The notes below the pieces were generated by a model that was given only the letters and a program-made list of their open reading frames with translations, was not told the origin of the DNA and did not search any database. DNA of 64,000 bases, from the NCBI GenBank assembly GCA_965279015.1, contig OZ257130.1, positions 575,723 through 639,722 on the forward strand, given 5' to 3'. Below are positions 15,489 to 60,537 of this stretch, piece by piece (position 1 is the stretch's first letter; the number at the start of each line of letters is the position of its first letter). A program made the position numbers and the translations under genes. The stretch is from Chitinophagaceae bacterium. Its GTDB lineage: Bacteria; Bacteroidota; Bacteroidia; Chitinophagales; Chitinophagaceae.

Positions 15489-17525
15489 TTAGTACCTAAT
15501 AAGTTTCTCAATAGTTTCTTCTAACCGTGCTTTGGCCATAAATGCTTTTTCGAGTTCTATATTAAAAGGAATAGGTGTATCCATCGAGGCGCAACGCATT
15601 ACCGGCGCATCCAGTAATTCAAAACAATGCTCGCCGATCCAGGCAGCAATCTCTCCGCCAATACCACCGGTTAATGTGTCTTCATGTAACAACAATACTT
15701 TACCGCTTCTTGCTACCGCTGAGCGGATAGCCGCGTAATCCAATGGCAATAACGTTCGCAGATCAAGAATATCAATTGATATTTCGGGATGTTCATCCGC
15801 ATACTCTTCGGCCCAATGCACAGCAGCTCCATAAGTAATGATGGATAGTTCTTCTCCGTCCCGAACATGACGGGCTTTTCCGATTTCAATTTCATAATAC
15901 TCTTCGGGAACCGGACCCGTTATGCTTCTGTACAATGCCTTATGTTCAAAATATAAAACCGGGTTGGGGTCATTGATCGCCGCAATCAATAATCCTTTTG
16001 CATCAATTGGAGTAGAAGGGTATACCACTTTCAATCCGGGGGTATGTACAAACCAGGCTTCATTACTCTGGCTATGAAAAGGACCGGCCCCCACTCCACC
16101 ACCTGTTGGCATTCTTATAACGGTATCTGCGTTCTGTCCCCAGCGATAATGTATTTTAGCAAGATTGTTTACGATCTGGTTAAAACCCACGGTTACAAAA
16201 TCGGCGAACTGCATTTCCATCATACTCTTGTATCCCTCTAAACTCAATCCCAATGCAGCTCCCACTATAGCATTCTCGCAAAGTGGCGTATTGCGCACTC
16301 TTTCTTTCCCGAATTCATTTACAAATCCTTCTGTTATTTTAAAGGCGCCTCCGTATTCAGCAATATCCTGACCCATGAGTATTAGATTCGGATGCTGTTG
16401 CATGGATTGACGGAGGCCGTCGCTGATTGCATCGATGAGACGTTTGTCGTGAGTCGTGAATGGTGAGTCGTGAGAGGTCTCTGAGTTATCGAGAACTCTG
16501 ACTTCAAACTCCTGACTCCCGACTCCTGACTCCCGACTTACTGCCGACTCCGCATACACATCATTGAATTCTTCCTCTTCATCTGCAACAACCACCGGTA
16601 TATTAAATCCAATTGCCAGTTCGCTTTCAATCTTTTCCTTGAATTCCGCCCGGATATTTTCAATATCGGTATCGGTTAACAGTTTCTCGGATTTCAGGTA
16701 TTCTTCATATTTTTTTACCGGATCTTTTTGTTCCCATATCTCGAATAAATGTTTGGGAACATATTTGGTTCCGCTTGCTTCCTCATGTCCGCGCATACGG
16801 AAAGTCATGCATTCGATTAAATAGGGTTTTTGATGTTCGATACAATAATCACGAACCCCCTTTATAGTATCGTATACGGTAAGAATATTATTGCCATCGA
16901 TCTTGATTCCTTCTATTCCATAACCAATTGCTTTTTCTACGAGGCTATCGCAACGGTATTGTTCATTCACCGGTGTACTCAATCCATATCCGTTGTTCTC
17001 AATAATAAAAATAACAGGCAGATCCCATACAGCCGCCGTATTCAGCGCTTCATGAAAATCTCCTTCGCTGGTGCCCCCATCACCGGTAAATGCCAGGGAT
17101 ACTTTTTTTTCTTTACGAAGTTTATGTGCCAATGCTACTCCATCGGCAATAGCCAGTTGAGGACCGAGGTGAGAAATCATCCCGCAGATATGATGTTCCT
17201 TAGAACCAAAATGAAAACTTCGTTCACGCCCCTTGCTATAACCTTCGCGGGCGCCCTGCCATTGCATGAATAGCTTACTGAGCGGCATGCCCCTTGATGT
17301 AAATACACCGAGGTTACGATGAAGTGGCATGATCCATTCGTCCTGATCCGTTGCTAATGCAGCACCAACCGCAATGGCTTCCTGGCCAATACCACTGAAC
17401 CATTTACTGATCTTTCCTTGCCGTAGCAGCACCAGCATTTTCTCTTCAATCATCCGTGGCCAGAGCAGGTTCCTGTAAAAATTGATAAGCTGAGCGTCGG
17501 GCAGTTCTTTACGATGGAATTGCAT
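15489..17525 (-). CDS. 2-oxoacid (branched-chain-type) dehydrogenase E1, fused alpha/beta
   Basis: TPP motif GDGGTSEGDFHEALN, FRMRGHEE, transketolase-like C-terminal domains (TPLCENAIVG). Confidence 0.95.
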   Translation of the reverse strand: MQFHRKELPDAQLINFYRNLLWPRMIEEKMLVLLRQGKISKWFSGIGQEAIAVGAALATDQDEWIMPLHRNLGVFTSRGMPLSKLFMQWQGAREGYSKGRERSFHFGSKEHHICGMISHLGPQLAIADGVALAHKLRKEKKVSLAFTGDGGTSEGDFHEALNTAAVWDLPVIFIIENNGYGLSTPVNEQYRCDSLVEKAIGYGIEGIKIDGNNILTVYDTIKGVRDYCIEHQKPYLIECMTFRMRGHEEASGTKYVPKHLFEIWEQKDPVKKYEEYLKSEKLLTDTDIENIRAEFKEKIESELAIGFNIPVVVADEEEEFNDVYAESAVSRESGVGSQEFEVRVLDNSETSHDSPFTTHDKRLIDAISDGLRQSMQQHPNLILMGQDIAEYGGAFKITEGFVNEFGKERVRNTPLCENAIVGAALGLSLEGYKSMMEMQFADFVTVGFNQIVNNLAKIHYRWGQNADTVIRMPTGGGVGAGPFHSQSNEAWFVHTPGLKVVYPSTPIDAKGLLIAAINDPNPVLYFEHKALYRSITGPVPEEYYEIEIGKARHVRDGEELSIITYGAAVHWAEEYADEHPEISIDILDLRTLLPLDYAAIRSAVARSGKVLLLHEDTLTGGIGGEIAAWIGEHCFELLDAPVMRCASMDTPIPFNIELEKAFMAKARLEETIEKLIRY
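16446..16552. repeat. 7-mer (GAGTCGG/T) inverted-repeat element in-frame inside the E1 alpha-beta linker
   Basis: gtcgtga gtcgtga atggtga gtcgtga ... actcctg actcccg actcctg actcccg; translates as SRESGVGSQEFEVRVLDNSETSHDSPFTTHD. Confidence 0.8.
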
Positions 17526-17817: not shown

Positions 17818-18171
17818 TCAATCTGTTTTTTCTTTTGCCGGCTCTTCTTTATATAATACTGCGGTAACAATGGAGAGCAGCAAACTAAAGAGCAGTGCCC
17901 ACCAGAAACCATCAACAGTAAATCCATCAATAAACTTATCAGCCAGCAGAATAATGGCCGCGTTAATGACAAAAAGAAATAGACCAAGTGTAATTACGGT
18001 AATAGGGAGAGTAAGTATTATTAAAATAGGTTTTAAAAGCGCATTCAATACCGCTAATACAACTGCGAGGATGATGGCTGTCCAGAATGAATCGATCTTA
18101 ATCCCTTTTAATATATAAGAAAGCCCGAACGCTATGACGGAGGTGACGATGATGCGCATTATGAATTTCAT
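17818..18171 (-). CDS. YvlD-like / phage holin superfamily IV membrane protein
   Basis: LNALLKPILIILTLPITVITLGLFLFVINA motif. Start moved to 18171 because the ORF-track extension reads through a repeat. Confidence 0.85.
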   Translation of the reverse strand: MKFIMRIIVTSVIAFGLSYILKGIKIDSFWTAIILAVVLAVLNALLKPILIILTLPITVITLGLFLFVINAAIILLADKFIDGFTVDGFWWALLFSLLLSIVTAVLYKEEPAKEKTD

Positions 18172-18335
18172 AGTTTGAAGTTTGTGGTTTTTAGTTTGTA
18201 GTTCTTCAGACATAACTTGCAAAATGAAATACTTCACCCTGCTGTTTTAAGTCCTTTTATTTTTTGTATACAAGCTTGTTTACTATTACTTAAAAATGAT
18301 AAACCTAAGGAACTACAAACCACAAACTACAAACC
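18171..18335. repeat. 7-mer (TACAAAC) inverted-repeat element
   Basis: tagtttgaagtttgtggtttttagtttgtagttctt ... aaggaactacaaaccacaaactacaaac. Confidence 0.85.
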
Positions 18336-18336
18336 A

Positions 18337-19653
18337 TTAAACTACTACAAGCTCATAAAACTCTTCCGGCTGCAAATATTTATTCGCTAATTGCTGCAAT
18401 TCTTCAGCGGTAATGGTTTTTGCTATTTCAATCCCTTTATAAAAATACGCTTCATCCAATCCATTCAGGAGTAAATTTTTCCATCTGCCGATTACCTGGA
18501 AGGGACCGTCCATATCACCCAGCACGGTTCCGATCATATAATTCCGGATCATCTGTAATTCTTCTTCGTCAACTGGCTCTTCACGCAACAATTGCATTTC
18601 TTTATATACTTCATTGATAGTGGCGTCGCTAACCTCTCTCCCCGCTTCGGTGCTGATCATCCATCCGCTTTCTCTTACCTGGTTCATTATATAACTATAA
18701 ATCCCATAGGTATATCCTTTGTCTTCCCGGATATTGTTTGATAGTCTCGAACCAAAAAATCCACCAAATACATTATTTAATACCAGCACTTTTTGAAAAT
18801 CAGGATGTAACCGGTTCGGAAAAGGACGCACAATACGGATAGCCGCTTGCACTCCATTGGGATCATTCGTGATTACATATTTTTTCTGCGCCGCAGGCTG
18901 TAAGGGATGAATGATTTCGTTTCCTGCACTGTGGTGGGAGTGAATGGGAAGTTTTCCAAAATGATTTTCCAATTGCTGTTCCAGATCCGCGGGAATTTTA
19001 CCAGCAGCGAAAATGATACAGCGACCACTTTTATAATACTGGTTGTAAAAAGAAACCAGTTCTTCCCTTCGCAGAGCAGCATAATCTTCCAGGTTATTAT
19101 AAGTGCCGTAGGGATGCTTTTCGCCGAATAAATATGAATCAATAAGACGACCCGCTACAAAATCATTTTTTTGCAGTCCTACTTTTAAACGTTGTTGTGA
19201 ATTCTGACTATAAATGGCCAGCTCTTCTTCAGGATAAACCGCATCAGTAATCATCTCTGCTACTACCGGTAATACTTCGTTTAAATGTTTATTGAGACAA
19301 TGCAGTGTTATCTCCGCAGTTTCGCTATGGCAGCTACGACTAAGATAGGAACCATAATATTCAAAATGTTCGTTGAGCTGGAAAGCGGTTTTTTGTGAAG
19401 TGCCATTCTTAAACAGGTAGTTCGTAGCGGAAGCCACCGCCTTTTTCTCTTCGAACCAATTGCCAGCACTAAACACCCAGTTCAGCATCAGGAGATCTTC
19501 TTCTCCCAAATTCACGAAATATACTTCCACCCCATTGGAAAGCGTAAATTTTTCACAGGGTGGTAATTTAATATCAAAATCAACCGGTTCTTTTATAGCC
19601 GGAGGTATAGCTCTGTTGATTTTACCAGCTTCACTGATCTTAGTTTTCACCAT
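18337..19653 (-). CDS. M16 (pitrilysin) family peptidase, non-catalytic subunit
   Basis: FGSRLSNNIREDKGYTYGI; no HxxEH. Start reassigned to 19653 (MVKTK), overlapping the upstream stop. Confidence 0.9.
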   Translation of the reverse strand: MVKTKISEAGKINRAIPPAIKEPVDFDIKLPPCEKFTLSNGVEVYFVNLGEEDLLMLNWVFSAGNWFEEKKAVASATNYLFKNGTSQKTAFQLNEHFEYYGSYLSRSCHSETAEITLHCLNKHLNEVLPVVAEMITDAVYPEEELAIYSQNSQQRLKVGLQKNDFVAGRLIDSYLFGEKHPYGTYNNLEDYAALRREELVSFYNQYYKSGRCIIFAAGKIPADLEQQLENHFGKLPIHSHHSAGNEIIHPLQPAAQKKYVITNDPNGVQAAIRIVRPFPNRLHPDFQKVLVLNNVFGGFFGSRLSNNIREDKGYTYGIYSYIMNQVRESGWMISTEAGREVSDATINEVYKEMQLLREEPVDEEELQMIRNYMIGTVLGDMDGPFQVIGRWKNLLLNGLDEAYFYKGIEIAKTITAEELQQLANKYLQPEEFYELVVV

Positions 19654-20910: not shown

Positions 20911-21059
20911 AGTTTGGGGTTTTGGTTTGTAGTTTATGGTTTATAGTTTGTAGTTCTTTTGGTGCTTTACCCAAAACTGATGTCACCCTACTTTCTAGGT
21001 AAAAAGGTGATTACTTGTTAAGATGAACTTAAGGAACTACAAACCACAAACTACAAACT
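20911..21059. repeat. 7-mer (TACAAAC) inverted-repeat element
   Basis: Right arm shares 29 identical bp (21030-21058) with 18306-18334. Confidence 0.85.
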
Positions 21060-34300: not shown

Positions 34301-34980
34301 TGAATCAAACAAATCAATTACCCGGACTTGTAATCTGCGACCAGCATATGCCGGAAATAGACGGTATTCAATTTATTAAAGAATTACGCAATCATTCTGT
34401 TTTTTCCCGCATTCCGGTAAGTCTTATGTTATCCTCCCTGGAAAAAAACCTTTACCAGAACGAAGCAGAAAAACTTCGCGTAAATCATATACTTACCAGG
34501 CCGGTTAAGCTTTATGAGTTATATAGCTTTCTATGCTCTCTTTCTTCGGGAGAAGAAATGCAGGCGGAAGAAAAACAGGGCTCTACTGTTATTGAAAAAT
34601 TCGCGGACGCTACTACCATTATGGTGGTGGAAGACGATCCCATTAACATGATGCTGATTTCGGAGGTACTTCGTAAAATGGGCTTTAAAGTAATTAAAGC
34701 CACTAATGGCAAACAGGCTCTTGAAATATTACCAAAATACGACCCGGTGTTGATTTTTATGGACGTAAATATGCCTGAAATGGATGGTTTTACAACCACC
34801 CGTCTTATCCGACAGTTACCTGAGCCACATTGTTCACTTCCGATAATTGCCCTTACTGCCGACGCTATGCAGGGCGACCGGGAAAAATGTATTGAAGCCG
34901 GCATGAATGATTATGTTACCAAGCCTTTCCGAATTGAAGAGATTGAGGCGGTGTTGAAGAATAGAACGCTTTTAGTATAA
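31399..34980 (+). CDS. Hybrid sensor histidine kinase (PilJ/NarX-like sensor, 2 PAS-PAC, GAF, HisKA, HATPase, 2 REC)
   Basis: QRMLSQ sensor motif, FMANMSHELRTPMNG, DTGIG, GGTGLGL, two receiver domains. Confidence 0.93.
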   Translation: MNTPFRKILRIAILVVAGALLFNFFGYYLVYRKSHENEKLVRFSDITAKQRMLSQVMTKDALILIDAELPETADTTLRSALKTDLASFISNNELLQKEISLPNIPVSQNTLEIKRLFNNSQTHFKSIVAVATEVLQADSLMIEMNSTLYKRELFQSENKFSPLMAEIIERYSKVIEGKNEDAAAINTSKFISLVIALLCLVLLVIEPLFRSGRKNYEALLNNELKFRLLAEHSEDIITVNSIDGTLQYVSPSVQRVLGYSQQEVEGKNIYDYVHIDDLYKFSPTGESQTLNEIVNLTIRYRMRCKNEDYIWLETIIKPVKEENVVVKLICTSRNITERRNAESEREQLLSEAKQSEELLRSVINSTPDWIFIKDLSHRYLLVNQSFADAMHQPPTYFVGKNDIEAGFPIALVKGDPEKGIRGYWDDDLDVVKTGKSRFSEEEANIIDGKTQYFSTVKVPLRDSDGYIWGVLGFAHNITDRKMVEEHLQRKDLLLQAVTEATHRLISNNSLVDAMGEAIQLLGIKMQVDIVNIYKNERTNDDKWVTNELLRWENGMDELIHKNPARQNLLMNLQSSLFRTLQNEDTYFNLVKNMDEDGIKSSLLNQGVKSIAVIPIFSLHNFWGFVEFSDCKIEREWTITEFSILQSFSSTLAAAIERMQMEHELVQAKNIAETASQAKSEFMANMSHELRTPMNGIIGFTDLVLTTELQHSQRQYLDNVKKSAFNLLSIINDILDLSKIEAGKLIIDNTHFRLDELVEDTVDLLTVKAFEKKLQVICRTDPRIPSLFNGDPVRVRQVLVNLLGNAIKFTAEGEIIVTTRRLTDVYHKEGKNFCDIELSVRDTGIGISREKLKKVFESFTQADSSTTRKYGGTGLGLTISKNLAELMGGQLTVTSDIGQGSTFILQLAMEVVNEKPQLLSDPINNVKKVLIADANASNRQWLKEIINYFGIECELVGSALEAMILLDKLNQTNQLPGLVICDQHMPEIDGIQFIKELRNHSVFSRIPVSLMLSSLEKNLYQNEAEKLRVNHILTRPVKLYELYSFLCSLSSGEEMQAEEKQGSTVIEKFADATTIMVVEDDPINMMLISEVLRKMGFKVIKATNGKQALEILPKYDPVLIFMDVNMPEMDGFTTTRLIRQLPEPHCSLPIIALTADAMQGDREKCIEAGMNDYVTKPFRIEEIEAVLKNRTLLV

Positions 34981-35068
34981 TGTAAAATATAAAATGTAGA
35001 ATATAAAATGTAAAAGTGAAGGCAACTCTACTTTTACATTTTATATTTTAAATTCTACATTTTACATT
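34979..35068. repeat. 7-mer (AAAATGT) inverted-repeat element
   Basis: aatgtaaaatataaaatgtagaatataaaatgtaaaagt ... acttttacattttatattttaaattctacattttacatt. Confidence 0.85.
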
Positions 35069-35145
35069 TCCCAGTCTTAACATCTCCTTACAACCCCCTT
35101 CTTTAATTTCACGTCTTATTTCCGAACTAAATCGACATAAATAAG

Positions 35146-52582: not shown

Positions 52583-52690
52583 AGGTTTAAAGGTTTAAGG
52601 GTTTAATAGTTTAAGAGTTCTACCATTCACAGATGCATTCCGGATTGGGATAACCTTTAAACTATTAAACCCTTAAAACGTTAAACTTTT
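52583..52690. repeat. 108-bp 8-mer (AGGTTTAA) inverted-repeat element, copy 1
   Basis: Five 8-mers, 28-nt loop, five inverted 8-mers. Confidence 0.85.
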
Positions 52691-53941: not shown

Positions 53942-53954
53942 GTGTTATAACAGA

Positions 53955-54062
53955 CGGTTTTAGAGTTTAAGGGTTAAAAGGTTTAAAGGTTTTTCCATTC
54001 ATGAGTTCATCACGGATTGAGGCAACCCTTAAACTCTTAAACCCTTAAACCTTTAAACTTTC
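53955..54062. repeat. 108-bp 8-mer inverted-repeat element, copy 2
   Basis: Same layout as 52583-52690; loops 19/28 identical. Confidence 0.85.
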
Positions 54063-57000
54063 TTAACTAAACAAATACTCCACATCCTCTCTCGACAAAC
54101 TCTTCACAAATCCTTCATCGTCGGTGATGAGGTCGCGGGCCAATATGCGTTTCTTTTCCTGAAGCGAGATGATCTTGTCCTCAATCGTGTCTTTACAAAT
54201 CATCCGGTAGGCGAAGATATTTTTCGTTTGCCCGATCCGGTGTGTACGGTCGATGGCCTGTTGCTCCACCGCGGGGTTCCACCAGGGGTCAACGATATAT
54301 ACATAGTCGGCAGCGGTCAAGTTTAATCCCACCCCACCCGCTTTAAGTGATATTAAAAATACGCGGCAATTATCATCATTCTGGAAACGCTGGATCGCTC
54401 TTTCTCTTTCAATGGCTGTTGTACTACCATCGAAATATTCAAAATCGATTTCCAGTTCTTTCAACTTCCCTTTGATCAGCGCCAGCATACCGAGGAACTG
54501 CGAAAAGATAAGCGCCTTATGATTACCCATGTTCTCCGAAATCTCGCGACCGATCTCTTCTAACTTAATAGAATGATTGGGGAATTTTTCCGTTTCATTC
54601 ATAATTGCCGGCGAATCGCAGATCTGACGCAGTTTCATTAACCCTTGCAAAATGGTGAGCTGCGATTTTTGGATGCCATTTGATTCGATAGTACCCAATA
54701 TCTTATCACGGAAATCGTTGCGATAAGCATCGTAAATACTGCGTTGCTCTTCCTGCATTTCGCAGAAGAGAATAGTTTCCACTTTTTCCGGAAGATCTTT
54801 CGCTACCTGTTCCTTGGTTCTCCGCAATATAAAAGGGAATAATAATTTACGCAAGTGATCCTTGCGATCGGGCTCTCCGAATTTATCAATCGGAATAGCA
54901 AATTCCTGGCGGAAGAATTCCATACTACCCAACATTCCGGGATTCAGGAAATTCATCTGCGCGAAAATATCGAAGGTATTATTCTGTAATGGCGTACCGC
55001 TTAAGCAAAGACGGTTCTTTGCATTCAACAATGAAGCCGCTCTTGTTACTTTGCTCGATGGGTTCTTGATCGCCTGCGATTCATCCAATACCACATAATC
55101 AAAAGGAATATCTACCAATAACTTTATATCGCTACGTAATGTTCCATACGTTGTGATCACAATATTCGAGCGGGTAAATTCTTCTTTCAATCGTGTACGT
55201 TCTCCACCATGATGGATATGATAGGTTAAGGAAGGTGTAAATTTTTTGATCTCATTCTCCCAGTTAAACATCAGCGTGGTAGGACAAACCACCAGGGCCG
55301 TCAGTTTTTCATGCGTCTGTTTAAAATAATGGAGATACGATAATGCCTGTACGGTTTTCCCCAAACCCATATCATCGGCCAGTATCCCACCCCATCCTAC
55401 TTCACTGAGATAATTGAGCCAATGAAAACCATGTTCTTGGTAAGGACGCAGGATATGCACGAGGTGTTCGGGAACAGGGATCTCCTTGATCTTATTAAAA
55501 TTCTTCAGTTGCTCGTATTTCTCTTCCAGCTTCACCACCAATTCTTCTTCGCTTCGTTCATCATACAATTCATCGATCACACTCATGTGGTATTTCGATA
55601 GCTTAAGCTGGTTCTGTTTTCCTTCGCCCACCCTAAACAGTAAGGAATATTTCTTTATCCACTCTTCGGGTAATATTCCCAGGGTTCCATCCTGCAAGGG
55701 GACAAACTGCTGGCGATTGGCCAATGCTTTCTTTACATCGGCAATCGTTACTTTCTGATCGCCGAATACAATATCCACCCGTGCATCGAACCAATCGGTA
55801 TTGCTGCTGATATGAATCTTTGTCTGCGGTTTAGCGGTATTGAAACGGAAGTTCTTCAATGCATCGTGTCCAAACACCGGCACTTTCATATCCCGCATGG
55901 CATCTACAAACAAGAAGAACCAGTTATTGCGTAATACTTCCGTTCCTTTTAATGCAAGTTGATTGCCCCCCTCAGGACGGATAAAATTAGAATGCAACGC
56001 TTCCAGTTTTTGCATGAACTGCAATTCTTTCTCACGATTGCGGTGAACGATCATTACTTTCTCTCCATCGGGTATGATCAGTTCATCTTTTCCGCCAGGT
56101 CTTGTTTCAAATCCTTTATAAGTGAACAGCGGTTGAAATACGAGATAATCCCCTTTCTCCTGCAACACAATTCTCTTTTCGGGATCCCCGTCTTTTATTT
56201 CGCTTACGATAGCGGGATCAAATTCAACATGGTACTCACGGGTAAGCGGTAATATGAATTGAAGCAATTGTTCGGACCAGTTCGATTTGGTGATGCTTAG
56301 TTTTCCTTTGGAATGAAACTTCATCACCAGGTTCACATCCTCCGGTTTCTGCCAGAGATATAAATTTTCTTCATAGAAAAACAACAGGCTGCTATCGATA
56401 TTATTTTCCGCTACCGATATTTCCTTGCCATTAATCTTTGCGCGGCATTCTATTTCGTATTGATTTTTTACCAGCGTAATCTTAAAATCAGGCATGATAA
56501 AATCGGCCACCATACCAATGGTTTTAAGATGTTCGGTTTTGAAAACCTTTTTTCCATTGAGATAAAACACAAACGGGCTCGTAGCTATTTCGCCAAAAAG
56601 TTTTTTCAGTTTAGGATGCAGGTATTCTACCATCAGCGACTTGGTATCTTCCGGCAGATCATCTTCTTCGTGATGAATGATATTTTCCCAGATTCCGCTG
56701 AAGGGGGAGTTGCGGTTCAGGTATTTAGTGATCTCTGTTTCATGCATTTTGCGCAAAGCAGGAATCAGTAACTGATCATTTTCATTATAGCCTTCCGTAG
56801 TGATGAATTTGCTGAGGTCGAGCCTCTCCACTTTTCCTATAAAAGCGGAAAAATCATCGTTACTTTCTCCGCTTACTGCATCCATTGCGAAGCCCGGGTA
56901 CCCCACCTGGTTAAAGTTGAACACAACCCCTACCCGTTTTGTTATACCGTTTGCTTTTTCTTCTTCGGTTGCTTCCGCCACATCCACCGGCTCGGGTTCG

Positions 57001-57951: not shown

Positions 57952-58072
57952 AATTGGGGATTGGGAAATTGGGAAATTTCGAAATCGCTTAACCAGTCTG
58001 TCAAACTGCCTTTTTTCTTAGTCACTATACCTCAAGAGATTTCCCAATTTCCCAATCCAAAATTTCAAAATC
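57952..58072. repeat. 8-mer (ATTGGGAA) inverted-repeat element
   Basis: attgggaa attgggaa atttcgaa ... ttcccaat ttcccaat, between divergent genes. Confidence 0.8.
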
Positions 58073-59816: not shown

Positions 59817-59954
59817 AATGTGAAAATGTGCAGATTAGAAAATGTGCAAATGCCTCAAGCGTACCATTCCTTATAAATCAGAATTTTACTTTTAGTCAAG
59901 AAAATTAAGTAAGAAGAATTTGCACATCTGCACATTTTCAAATTTGCTAATTTG
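59817..59954. repeat. ~137-bp inverted-repeat element (GAAAATGT/GCAGATTA 8-mers), copy 1
   Basis: 30-bp and 28-bp blocks identical to copy 2. Confidence 0.9.
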
Positions 59955-59959
59955 CCACC

Positions 59960-60394
59960 GTGAAACTCAAACTCGACTTCGAAGACCTCGCCGAAGATTT
60001 TTTTGAAGAAACCCACCTGCTGGGTATTGTAGCCCCTATCCGCGATTACCAATTTTGCTGGTTCCTCAACCATCGGTTTCGTTTCGACTTTCGCATTAAC
60101 AATGATATTGAAATACAGCTTTTCAAAAAAAAGCGTCATTATTATTTCCGGATCTATGAGTATCGTCAACCCAATAGCAGCCTCATACACTATTTATACA
60201 AAAACCAGTTTGATGGCGAATACCTGCTGCCCGAATTTAAACACCTCGATTATCTTTGGTTATTGAAAGGAGATACCATAAGTACCGATTTTTTACTCGA
60301 TCTTACTACTACCATTAAATCAATGAATGGGGTACAATTGGTGATGGAGTTGACGAATGAGAAGATAAAGAATAAGGGACATCTGATATTTTAA
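59960..60394 (+). CDS. IPExxxVDY family protein
   Basis: LLPEFKHLDYL motif; GTG start. Confidence 0.85.
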   Translation: MKLKLDFEDLAEDFFEETHLLGIVAPIRDYQFCWFLNHRFRFDFRINNDIEIQLFKKKRHYYFRIYEYRQPNSSLIHYLYKNQFDGEYLLPEFKHLDYLWLLKGDTISTDFLLDLTTTIKSMNGVQLVMELTNEKIKNKGHLIF

Positions 60395-60530
60395 ATATGC
60401 AAATGTGCAGATTAGAAAATGTGCAAATGCGTCAGGTGTAACATTCCTTATAAATTAGAGTTTTTCTATTAGTCAGGAATTTTAAACGAGAAGAATTTGC
60501 ACATCTGCACATTTTCTAATTTTCTAATTT
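60395..60530. repeat. ~137-bp inverted-repeat element, copy 2
   Basis: Direct repeat of 59817-59954, including the loop (cattccttataaat, tagtca). Confidence 0.9.
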
Positions 60531-60537
60531 GACTTCT

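Follow-up and report, generated by a model that had tools for sequence, protein, structure and literature searches.

The linker between the two halves of a fused dehydrogenase from a Chitinophagaceae bacterium is probably the translated, in-frame copy of a dispersed hairpin repeat made of heptamer arrays, which the enzyme would tolerate as a passenger. The gene lies in a stretch of 64,000 nucleotides, called the window here (contig OZ257130.1, positions 575,723 to 639,722), of a genome that consists of a single 5.53-Mb contig. Its mechanically called open reading frame (ORF) codes for a fused E1 alpha-beta 2-oxoacid dehydrogenase (Table 1). Positions 16446-16552 hold two opposed 7-mer arrays, (GTCGTGA)x4 and (ACTCCYG)x4, flanking a 33-nt spacer. 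The initial annotation had described these two arms as a tandem-repeat hairpin element read in frame without stops, and both the sequence and Tandem Repeats Finder (TRF) bear out the description. TRF reported GTCGTGA x4.1 at 16446-16474 and ACTCCCG x4.4 (ACTCCTGACTCCCG x2.2, 100% match) at 16508-16538, beyond which a degenerate tail runs to about 16552. The arrays are read without a stop as residues 325-361 of the 678-aa ORF, and the 37 residues counted between DVY and RLIDAI are correct. The periodicity is well above chance, with a lag-7 autocorrelation of 0.58 for the linker DNA (z = 7.3 against shuffles).

In most bacteria, the alpha and beta modules of E1 are separate polypeptides. The Pfam domains of the fused protein are E1_dh (residues 22-303), Transket_pyr (365-533), and Transketolase_C (549-665). 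Homology to alpha subunits in the PDB stops at or before residue 327 and homology to beta subunits begins at or after residue 359, so residues 325-361 are the joint of the two modules. No Pfam or PDB homology covers these residues. The linker has pLDDT values (the AlphaFold2 confidence score) of 24-32 and no secondary structure in an AlphaFold2 model that is poor overall (mean pLDDT 51.5), which weakly suggests a disordered linker.

Table 1. Features of the fused E1 gene and its repeat-bearing linker (window coordinates)
Feature	Position	Strand	Sequence or reading	Basis
Host gene, fused E1 alpha-beta 2-oxoacid (branched-chain type) dehydrogenase	15489..17525	(-)	678 aa	ORF and Pfam
Interdomain linker, all repeat-derived or repeat-flanked	16443..16553	(-)	111 nt; residues 325-361, AESAVSRESGVGSQEFEVRVLDNSETSHDSPFTTHDK	
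Family-1 arm	16446..16474	(-)	+ strand (GTCGTGA)(GTCGTGA)(ATGGTGA)(GTCGTGA)G; coding strand CTCACGACTCACCATTCACGACTCACGAC, read as SHDSPFTTHD	TRF
Family-1 core remnant	16475..16498	(-)	AGGTCTCTGAGTTATCGAGAACTC; coding strand read as (R)VLDNSET	BLAST into intergenic copies
Short joint between core remnant and second arm	16499..16507	(-)	TGACTTCAA	Read from sequence
Family-2 arm	16508..16552	(-)	+ strand (ACTCCTG)(ACTCCCG)(ACTCCTG)(ACTCCCG)ACT and degenerate tail TACTGCCGACTCCG; coding strand (GAGTCNG)n, read as ESAVSRESGVGSQE	TRF
Examples of expected tryptic peptides of the predicted fused protein			ESGVGSQEFEVR, VLDNSETSHDSPFTTHDK	

Period 7 dominates the tandem repeats of this genome. TRF listed 1831 period-7 and 835 period-8 arrays against 129 of period 6, in a total of 4926 rows. 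About 631 neighbouring pairs of arrays with 7- or 8-nt units stand in inverted orientation; the gap between the two arrays has a median of 51 nt, and the pairs comprise some 100 unit types (at least 100). Among the frequent array units are AAAATGT, ACGACTC, AAATGTGC, and AAACTAC. The unit ACGACTC, which is that of the E1 left arm, is the second commonest among the inverted pairs (67 pairs). Long ORFs hold 1.7% of the inverted pairs despite covering about 82% of the genome. Examples of inverted pairs in the window are found at 18166-18341, 20925-21059, 34975-35069, 52583-52686, 53952-54063, 57952-58064, 59817-59955, and 60393-60531.

Two of the array families matter for the E1 linker. Family 1 (CGTGAGT/ACTCACG arms) has about four units of the TCGTGAG, ACGTGAA, and TGGTGAG kinds in a fixed order, then a conserved core, and then the inverted array (ACTCACG...). 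The core is 40-52 nt long and falls into two size classes of 41 and 50 nt. A strict pattern found 105 full family-1 copies with a median length of 106 nt, whose ends are the inverted arrays. Most copies are bracketed by AA...TT, and these flanks extend the palindrome; target duplications of at least 2 nt at the flanks were absent from 97 of the 105 full copies. A 27-mer of the family-1 arm has 165 occurrences in the genome and 40 in one other genus; each of the remaining 39 relatives has 0-4. Family 2 has GAGTCGG/GAGTCAG/GAGTTCG arms paired with CCGACTC and separated by short loops. Its unit is one base off the family-1 unit (GAGTCGT to GAGTCGG), and the changed base removes TGA.

Some surroundings of family-1 copies stand out. 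At least 13 elements lie within 55 kb (G000:C1:1426479-1480646), many of them after the same conserved flank (...CCGGTGAAGAGCTTGAGAAGTGAATGA), which suggests a multi-copy gene family or cassette with an element at its 3' end. Several copies (e.g., G000:C1:267886, 298513, and 1596409) begin right after a terminator-like GGGGCTTTTT. Such starts, and the AA...TT brackets of most copies, hint that the elements prefer terminator T-runs or themselves serve as bidirectional terminators.

The E1 copy is homologous to these dispersed elements. Its left arm matches about 158 places in the genome, and positions 16447-16474 are identical over 28 of 28 nt to several intergenic copies, such as those at genome positions 5020144, 198585, and 4205185. 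The BLAST alignments of this arm extend 8-25 nt into the spacer, for example over 54 nt at 85% and 52 nt at 81%. The E1 spacer and the intergenic copies have two features in common, the junction TCAGAGACC/TCTCACG and the stretch TTCTCGATAA, whose reading in the E1 frame is LDN. Aligned with 348 core ends, the E1 spacer reached a mean score with a z of about 4.8, and none of 300 shuffles was as good. Only about 24 nt of the family-1 core next to the arm align in the E1 copy; the stop-rich middle and the far end are absent. The right arm matches about 54 places in the genome, which belong to family 2. This second arm is of the ACTCCYG type and not an inverted copy of the first, so the E1 copy differs from a family-1 element in this respect. 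The order on the coding strand is the family-2 arm, the last 24 nt or so of the family-1 core, and the family-1 arm. The 7-nt phase of the 5' arm is carried on through the short joint (TTGAAGT CAGAGTT).

Because its arms belong to two related unit families (CGTGAGT type and GAGTCGG type), the E1 copy is a hybrid and a weak hairpin. The unit consensuses of the two arms are reverse complements with one mismatch in seven, and a hand alignment gave about 70% complementarity between the arms. For the RNA, a minimum free energy of -41.7 kcal/mol compares with -36.2 +/- 3.6 for shuffles (z -1.54), of which 17 of 200 were equally good. The DNA fold has a z of -1.0, and no Rfam family matches the element. 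RNA or DNA structure as the purpose of the E1 copy was therefore rejected, as the folds are no better than those of shuffles and Rfam gives no match. The initial annotation had assigned to the E1 insert the architecture of the intergenic elements. The identical left arm and the spacer homology agree with this assignment, with the correction that the arms are of mixed origin and the hairpin is weaker than implied.

The reading frame acts as an orientation filter on the arrays. About 50 family-1 and family-2 arrays lie in frame in long ORFs of the genome, always in the stop-free orientation. Long ORFs contain 17 of the 372 family-1 arrays, and every one of the 17 has the TCAC rather than the GTGA orientation. 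A GTGA-oriented family-1 arm has a TGA in each unit and thus hits every frame within three units, and the core middle CTAAGTAATAGTGA is filled with stops, which leaves TCAC as the one open orientation. Family 2 is free or nearly free of TGA, and about 33 of its 80 arrays are in ORFs. The filter is also visible in orthologues of the E1 gene with GTGA-type 5' arms. Their units with an in-frame TGA position read TCA in 15 of 15 cases, and their out-of-frame units keep TGA in 19 of 27. That no TGA lies in frame follows trivially from the frame being open; what is informative is the kept 7-nt register with a single-base escape.

Similar inserts occur in other proteins of the genome. Eleven inverted pairs and 153 single arrays lie deep within long ORFs. 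The hosts confirmed by Pfam are dihydroorotate dehydrogenase (PyrD), lipid-A-disaccharide synthase (LpxB), a rhodanese-domain protein, a heavy-metal P-type ATPase, FAD synthetase/riboflavin kinase (RibF), and an E2 acyltransferase. A proteome search for related inserts, as the initial annotation had proposed, was positive in about 30 further long ORFs, whose peptides are of the SGVGSQES-, HDSRLTTHD-, and DSRLPTPDS- types. Their kinship is easily recognised in stretches such as SGVGSQESGV, HDSRLTTHDS, and DSRLPTPDSRL. In the E2 acyltransferase, the array sits in the linker that follows the E3-binding domain. This enzyme (G000:C1:3951947-3953296) belongs to a 2-oxoacid dehydrogenase complex; in-frame heptamer arrays in the interdomain linker are seen both in it and in the E2 acyltransferase L127 of another genome (G041), and their unit families differ. 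The rhodanese-domain ORF (G000:C1:639707-640870), which we read as selenouridine-synthase-like, starts 16 nt before the window end and runs about 1.1 kb beyond it. It has two in-frame inserts, ESIVSSRESGVSQESVVSS...DSRLPTPNSRL and GHSRLTTHDSR.

We read the E1 linker in 110 orthologues from Chitinophagales. The linker had been expected to be about 20 residues long in other Bacteroidota. This is true of the outgroup families, whose linkers are 16-25 aa long and have no periodicity, but not of the Chitinophagaceae-type clade, in which the range is 16-74 aa. About 45 of the 110 linkers are 7-periodic (lag-7 z of at least 3). They include at least five unit families (CGTGAGT/TAGTGAA types, GAGTCNG, TTTCTCG/CGAGAAA, GGAGTCT/CCCCAAA, and ACAAACA types). 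Around 17 linkers have strong stems; that of L040 reaches -52 kcal/mol with both arms from family 2, and the stems of L096, L064, and L073 have z values above 11. The sister sequences L062 and L075 (path length 0.055) carry wholly different elements. The abundance of the family-1 arm in a genome has no strict correlation with arrays in its own E1 linker; for example, G023 has 40 arm matches and a non-periodic linker.

The closest relative found, a sister species at 94.5% aa and 89% nt identity, comes from an independent metagenome assembly; its contig has the same neighbouring genes and carries the same hybrid. Compared with the E1 copy, it lacks about 2-3 units in the 5' arm and has seven units instead of four in the 3' arm, with the frame kept. 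Since the arms are microsatellite-like, the inserted peptide changes its length between the sister species. Relatives at 81-83% aa identity have the same arrangement or a decayed version. That the insertion is recent and private, with close relatives keeping an empty site, was rejected because the sister species already has the arrays. The comparison of orthologues recovered arrays in many of them, and the insert is not private, as the sister species and many family members have homologous or analogous arrays in the same linker. The repeat-free genus-mates L005 and L031 are not clean empty sites because they keep a DNS motif. The E1 insert thus predates the species, is dynamic in its unit number, and has been lost or replaced in many relatives.

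Orthologues with an equally long linker and no 7-bp periodicity had been named as evidence against an insert, and such orthologues exist. The genus-mates L002-L004 (G007, G004, and G011) have a non-periodic insert of 39-43 aa in the E1 linker. We nevertheless keep the interpretation of a repeat-derived linker, because these linkers carry a different dispersed repeat. Their insert contains small CCCTCCC-NNN-GGGAGGG and CCCC-GAA-GGGG hairpins, and two of the three genomes (G007 and G004) have a 30-mer of it at one further site.

These observations suggest how the linker may have formed. What the E1 copy keeps of family 1 is a single arm, NNNTCAC on the coding strand, with the core end next to it; the stop-rich core middle and the TGA-containing arm are missing, and an arm of the closely related TGA-free family 2 stands in their place. 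Such a stop-free and frame-preserving sequence would be tolerated because the site lies exactly between the alpha and beta modules, and it would be translated into a neutral spacer rich in Ser, Gly, Glu, Thr, and His. The arrays would then gain and lose units, probably by slipped-strand mispairing and possibly by recombination or gene conversion with other copies, and selection would remove only stops and frameshifts.

Several points weigh against this interpretation. We infer the insertion rather than see it, because neither a target duplication nor a mobilising enzyme was found; for the latter, three Y1_Tnp genes were inspected. The E1 copy is a poor hairpin, and half of the core is gone. 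The number of independent colonisations is uncertain, because the orthologue tree is a single-gene FastTree with many unresolved forks. Finally, the conserved [IVL]DNS of the spacer could be a native motif with a function, and the arrays on its two sides could have been acquired separately. In the 50 closest homologues, [IVL][IVL]DNS is nearly invariant and [IVL]DNS is present in at least 90%. Many repeat-free linkers of the family have the motif too, and the outgroup families lack it. Because the E1 spacer matches present-day family-1 cores, the motif may instead be the fossil of an ancient element core, a proposal to which we give a little less than an even chance. Alternatively, DNS may be a native motif around which arrays accumulate. 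Family-2 copies in the L040 genome were inspected for loops that might encode IDNS; most of these copies are single arrays or have short loops and are uninformative here.

In a rival explanation, the linker with its DNS motif is native, slippage at the site or small insertions independent of each other produced the 7-nt arrays on either side of it, and the inversion is incidental. The conservation of DNS in repeat-free linkers across the family fits such a history, as do the different unit families and poor pairing of the two arms. The Glu-Ser codons (GARTCN) of the repeat-free genus-mate L005 are also unit-like and could seed slippage. However, the 28-nt identity of the left arm with many dispersed copies includes the order of the unit variants, and the junction of core and arm is likewise common to E1 and the dispersed copies. 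Orthologues with GTGA-type 5' arms keep the inversion though it needs stop-removing changes. This is unexpected for independent arrays, because both would take the stop-free orientation. Moreover, the same hybrid (family-2 5' arm and family-1 3' arm) lies in frame in three other ORFs, namely those of the P-type ATPase, LpxB, and one other protein, with loops of only 5-6 nt. We therefore consider a native linker with incidental arrays rather unlikely.

It is improbable that the segment is a functional nucleic-acid or peptide element, such as one that pauses translation between the modules or sets the length or flexibility of the linker. The persistence of arrays in the E1 linker across many lineages, the very strong stems of L040, L096, L064, and L073, and the conserved DNS would be expected of such an element. 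The fold in this genome, however, is no better than that of shuffles and has no Rfam counterpart, and in the sister species one arm is shorter and the other longer. Close relatives also vary in unit families, loops, and lengths, and many relatives are repeat-free.

A phase-variation switch, in which the change of a single 7-nt unit shifts the frame and toggles the beta half, is highly improbable. In its favour, 7 nt is no multiple of three and the unit number differs between the sister species, but the frame is intact in each of the 110 orthologues and in the sister species. The arrays are short (four units) and impure, the host is a central metabolic enzyme, and arrays occur in many unrelated housekeeping genes. 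An assembly artefact, a repeat collapsed or chimerically joined within the gene, is hardly conceivable; short dispersed repeats may mislead assemblers, but the genome is a single contig with an intact ORF, the independent sister metagenome assembly has homologous arrays at the same site with the same neighbours, and arrays in the E1 linker appear in dozens of independent assemblies.

A translated copy of a dispersed repeat thus remains our explanation of the E1 linker, and it may be part of a wider pattern. We tentatively propose, with less confidence than an even chance would carry, that Chitinophagaceae have an undescribed class of repeats in which arms of 7- or 8-nt-unit arrays surround a family-specific core. 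Members of this class would repeatedly colonise, replace, and resize the linkers and surface loops of housekeeping proteins, the TGA-free GAGTCGG variant would make the element translatable and strongly enriched in ORFs, and the DNS of E1 would be a core fossil. To our knowledge, there is essentially one well-documented large-scale example of selfish repeats colonising essential genes in frame, the Rickettsia palindromic elements (RPEs). Here, a structurally different class of element would do the same in a free-living Bacteroidota lineage. The purging of stops is visible, both in the change of TGA to TCA at in-frame units and in the enrichment of a TGA-free arm family in ORFs, and in close relatives different element families have made use of one and the same permissive linker. 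The system may serve as a natural case of how linkers and loops of conserved enzymes gain new sequence. For annotation and phylogenetics, low-complexity inserts in Chitinophagaceae proteins may be repeat-derived and unfit as homologous characters. A limited literature search, which is not proof of absence, found no description of heptamer or tandem-repeat hairpin elements in Bacteroidetes or Chitinophagaceae.

The initial annotation had drawn a parallel to RPEs with a different type of element, and the homology to dispersed families supports it. In-frame RPE insertions in ORFs have been reviewed, and the inserted peptide segment is compatible with protein function (PMC10969869). Like RPEs, the present elements are dispersed palindromic repeats that lie in frame in many unrelated housekeeping ORFs and add a peptide (PMC10969869). 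RPEs are palindromes of unique sequence of about 100-150 bp in Rickettsia, and each family gives one conserved peptide. Unlike them, the present elements have arms of 7-nt units in variable number, several unrelated unit families, and a Bacteroidota host. All three frames are used here because the arms are arrays of 7-nt units. The relation to RPEs should be taken as an analogy only, and no kinship in sequence is expected.

Heptanucleotide arrays are also familiar from cyanobacteria. The short tandemly repeated repetitive (STRR) sequences that Mazel et al. reportedly described in 1990 are dispersed arrays of few units and mostly intergenic, and Vioque is said to have found them in 1997 within cyanobacterial RNase P RNA genes. 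STRR units include CCCCAGT, TTGGTCA, and CAACAGT, none of which is among the top units here, and the phylum differs as well. The likeness lies in dispersed tandem heptanucleotide arrays of few units that are mostly intergenic and sometimes in functional genes. Unlike STRRs, the present elements have a defined succession of arm, conserved core, and inverted arm, and they lie in frame in many proteins. Heptameric repeats are over-represented in many bacteria with a preference for four units, and the detailed literature on them is scarce (PMC4692102).

Small non-autonomous inverted-repeat elements such as ERIC, BOX, and Nezha, which belong to the miniature transposable elements with inverted repeats (MITEs), resemble the present elements and can lie in ORFs, occasionally as in-frame fusions (PMC10969869). 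A classical MITE was rejected, as terminal inverted repeats are present but target-site duplications are absent from 97 of the 105 copies. The arms are also internally repetitive, unlike those of MITEs, and no parent insertion sequence was identified. Repetitive extragenic palindromes (REPs) and the REPIN hairpins share with the present elements their short extragenic palindromes, hundreds of copies, and lack of target-site duplications; unlike them, the heptamer elements have arms of tandem repeats and a length of about 106 nt. Mobilisation by a REP-associated tyrosine transposase (RAYT), as for REPINs, was rejected, since the Y1 genes of this genome are flanked by a GTAG-type palindrome (GTAGCCCCTACGGGGCAT) and not by heptamer arrays. 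No heptamer array lies within 1.3 kb of any of the three Y1 genes. Those at genome positions 1413990 and 5157831 have flanking GTAG-type palindromes, and the third (2160494) has no flanking palindrome. The two flanked genes (G000:C1:1413590-1414734 and G000:C1:5157431-5158575) are RAYT-like and have classical GTAG-type REPs (GTAGCCCCTACGGGGCAT and GCGTTCCGTAGGAACGCC) alongside. One of them is followed by a tandem array of a unit of about 55 nt, and this repeat system is separate from the heptamer elements.

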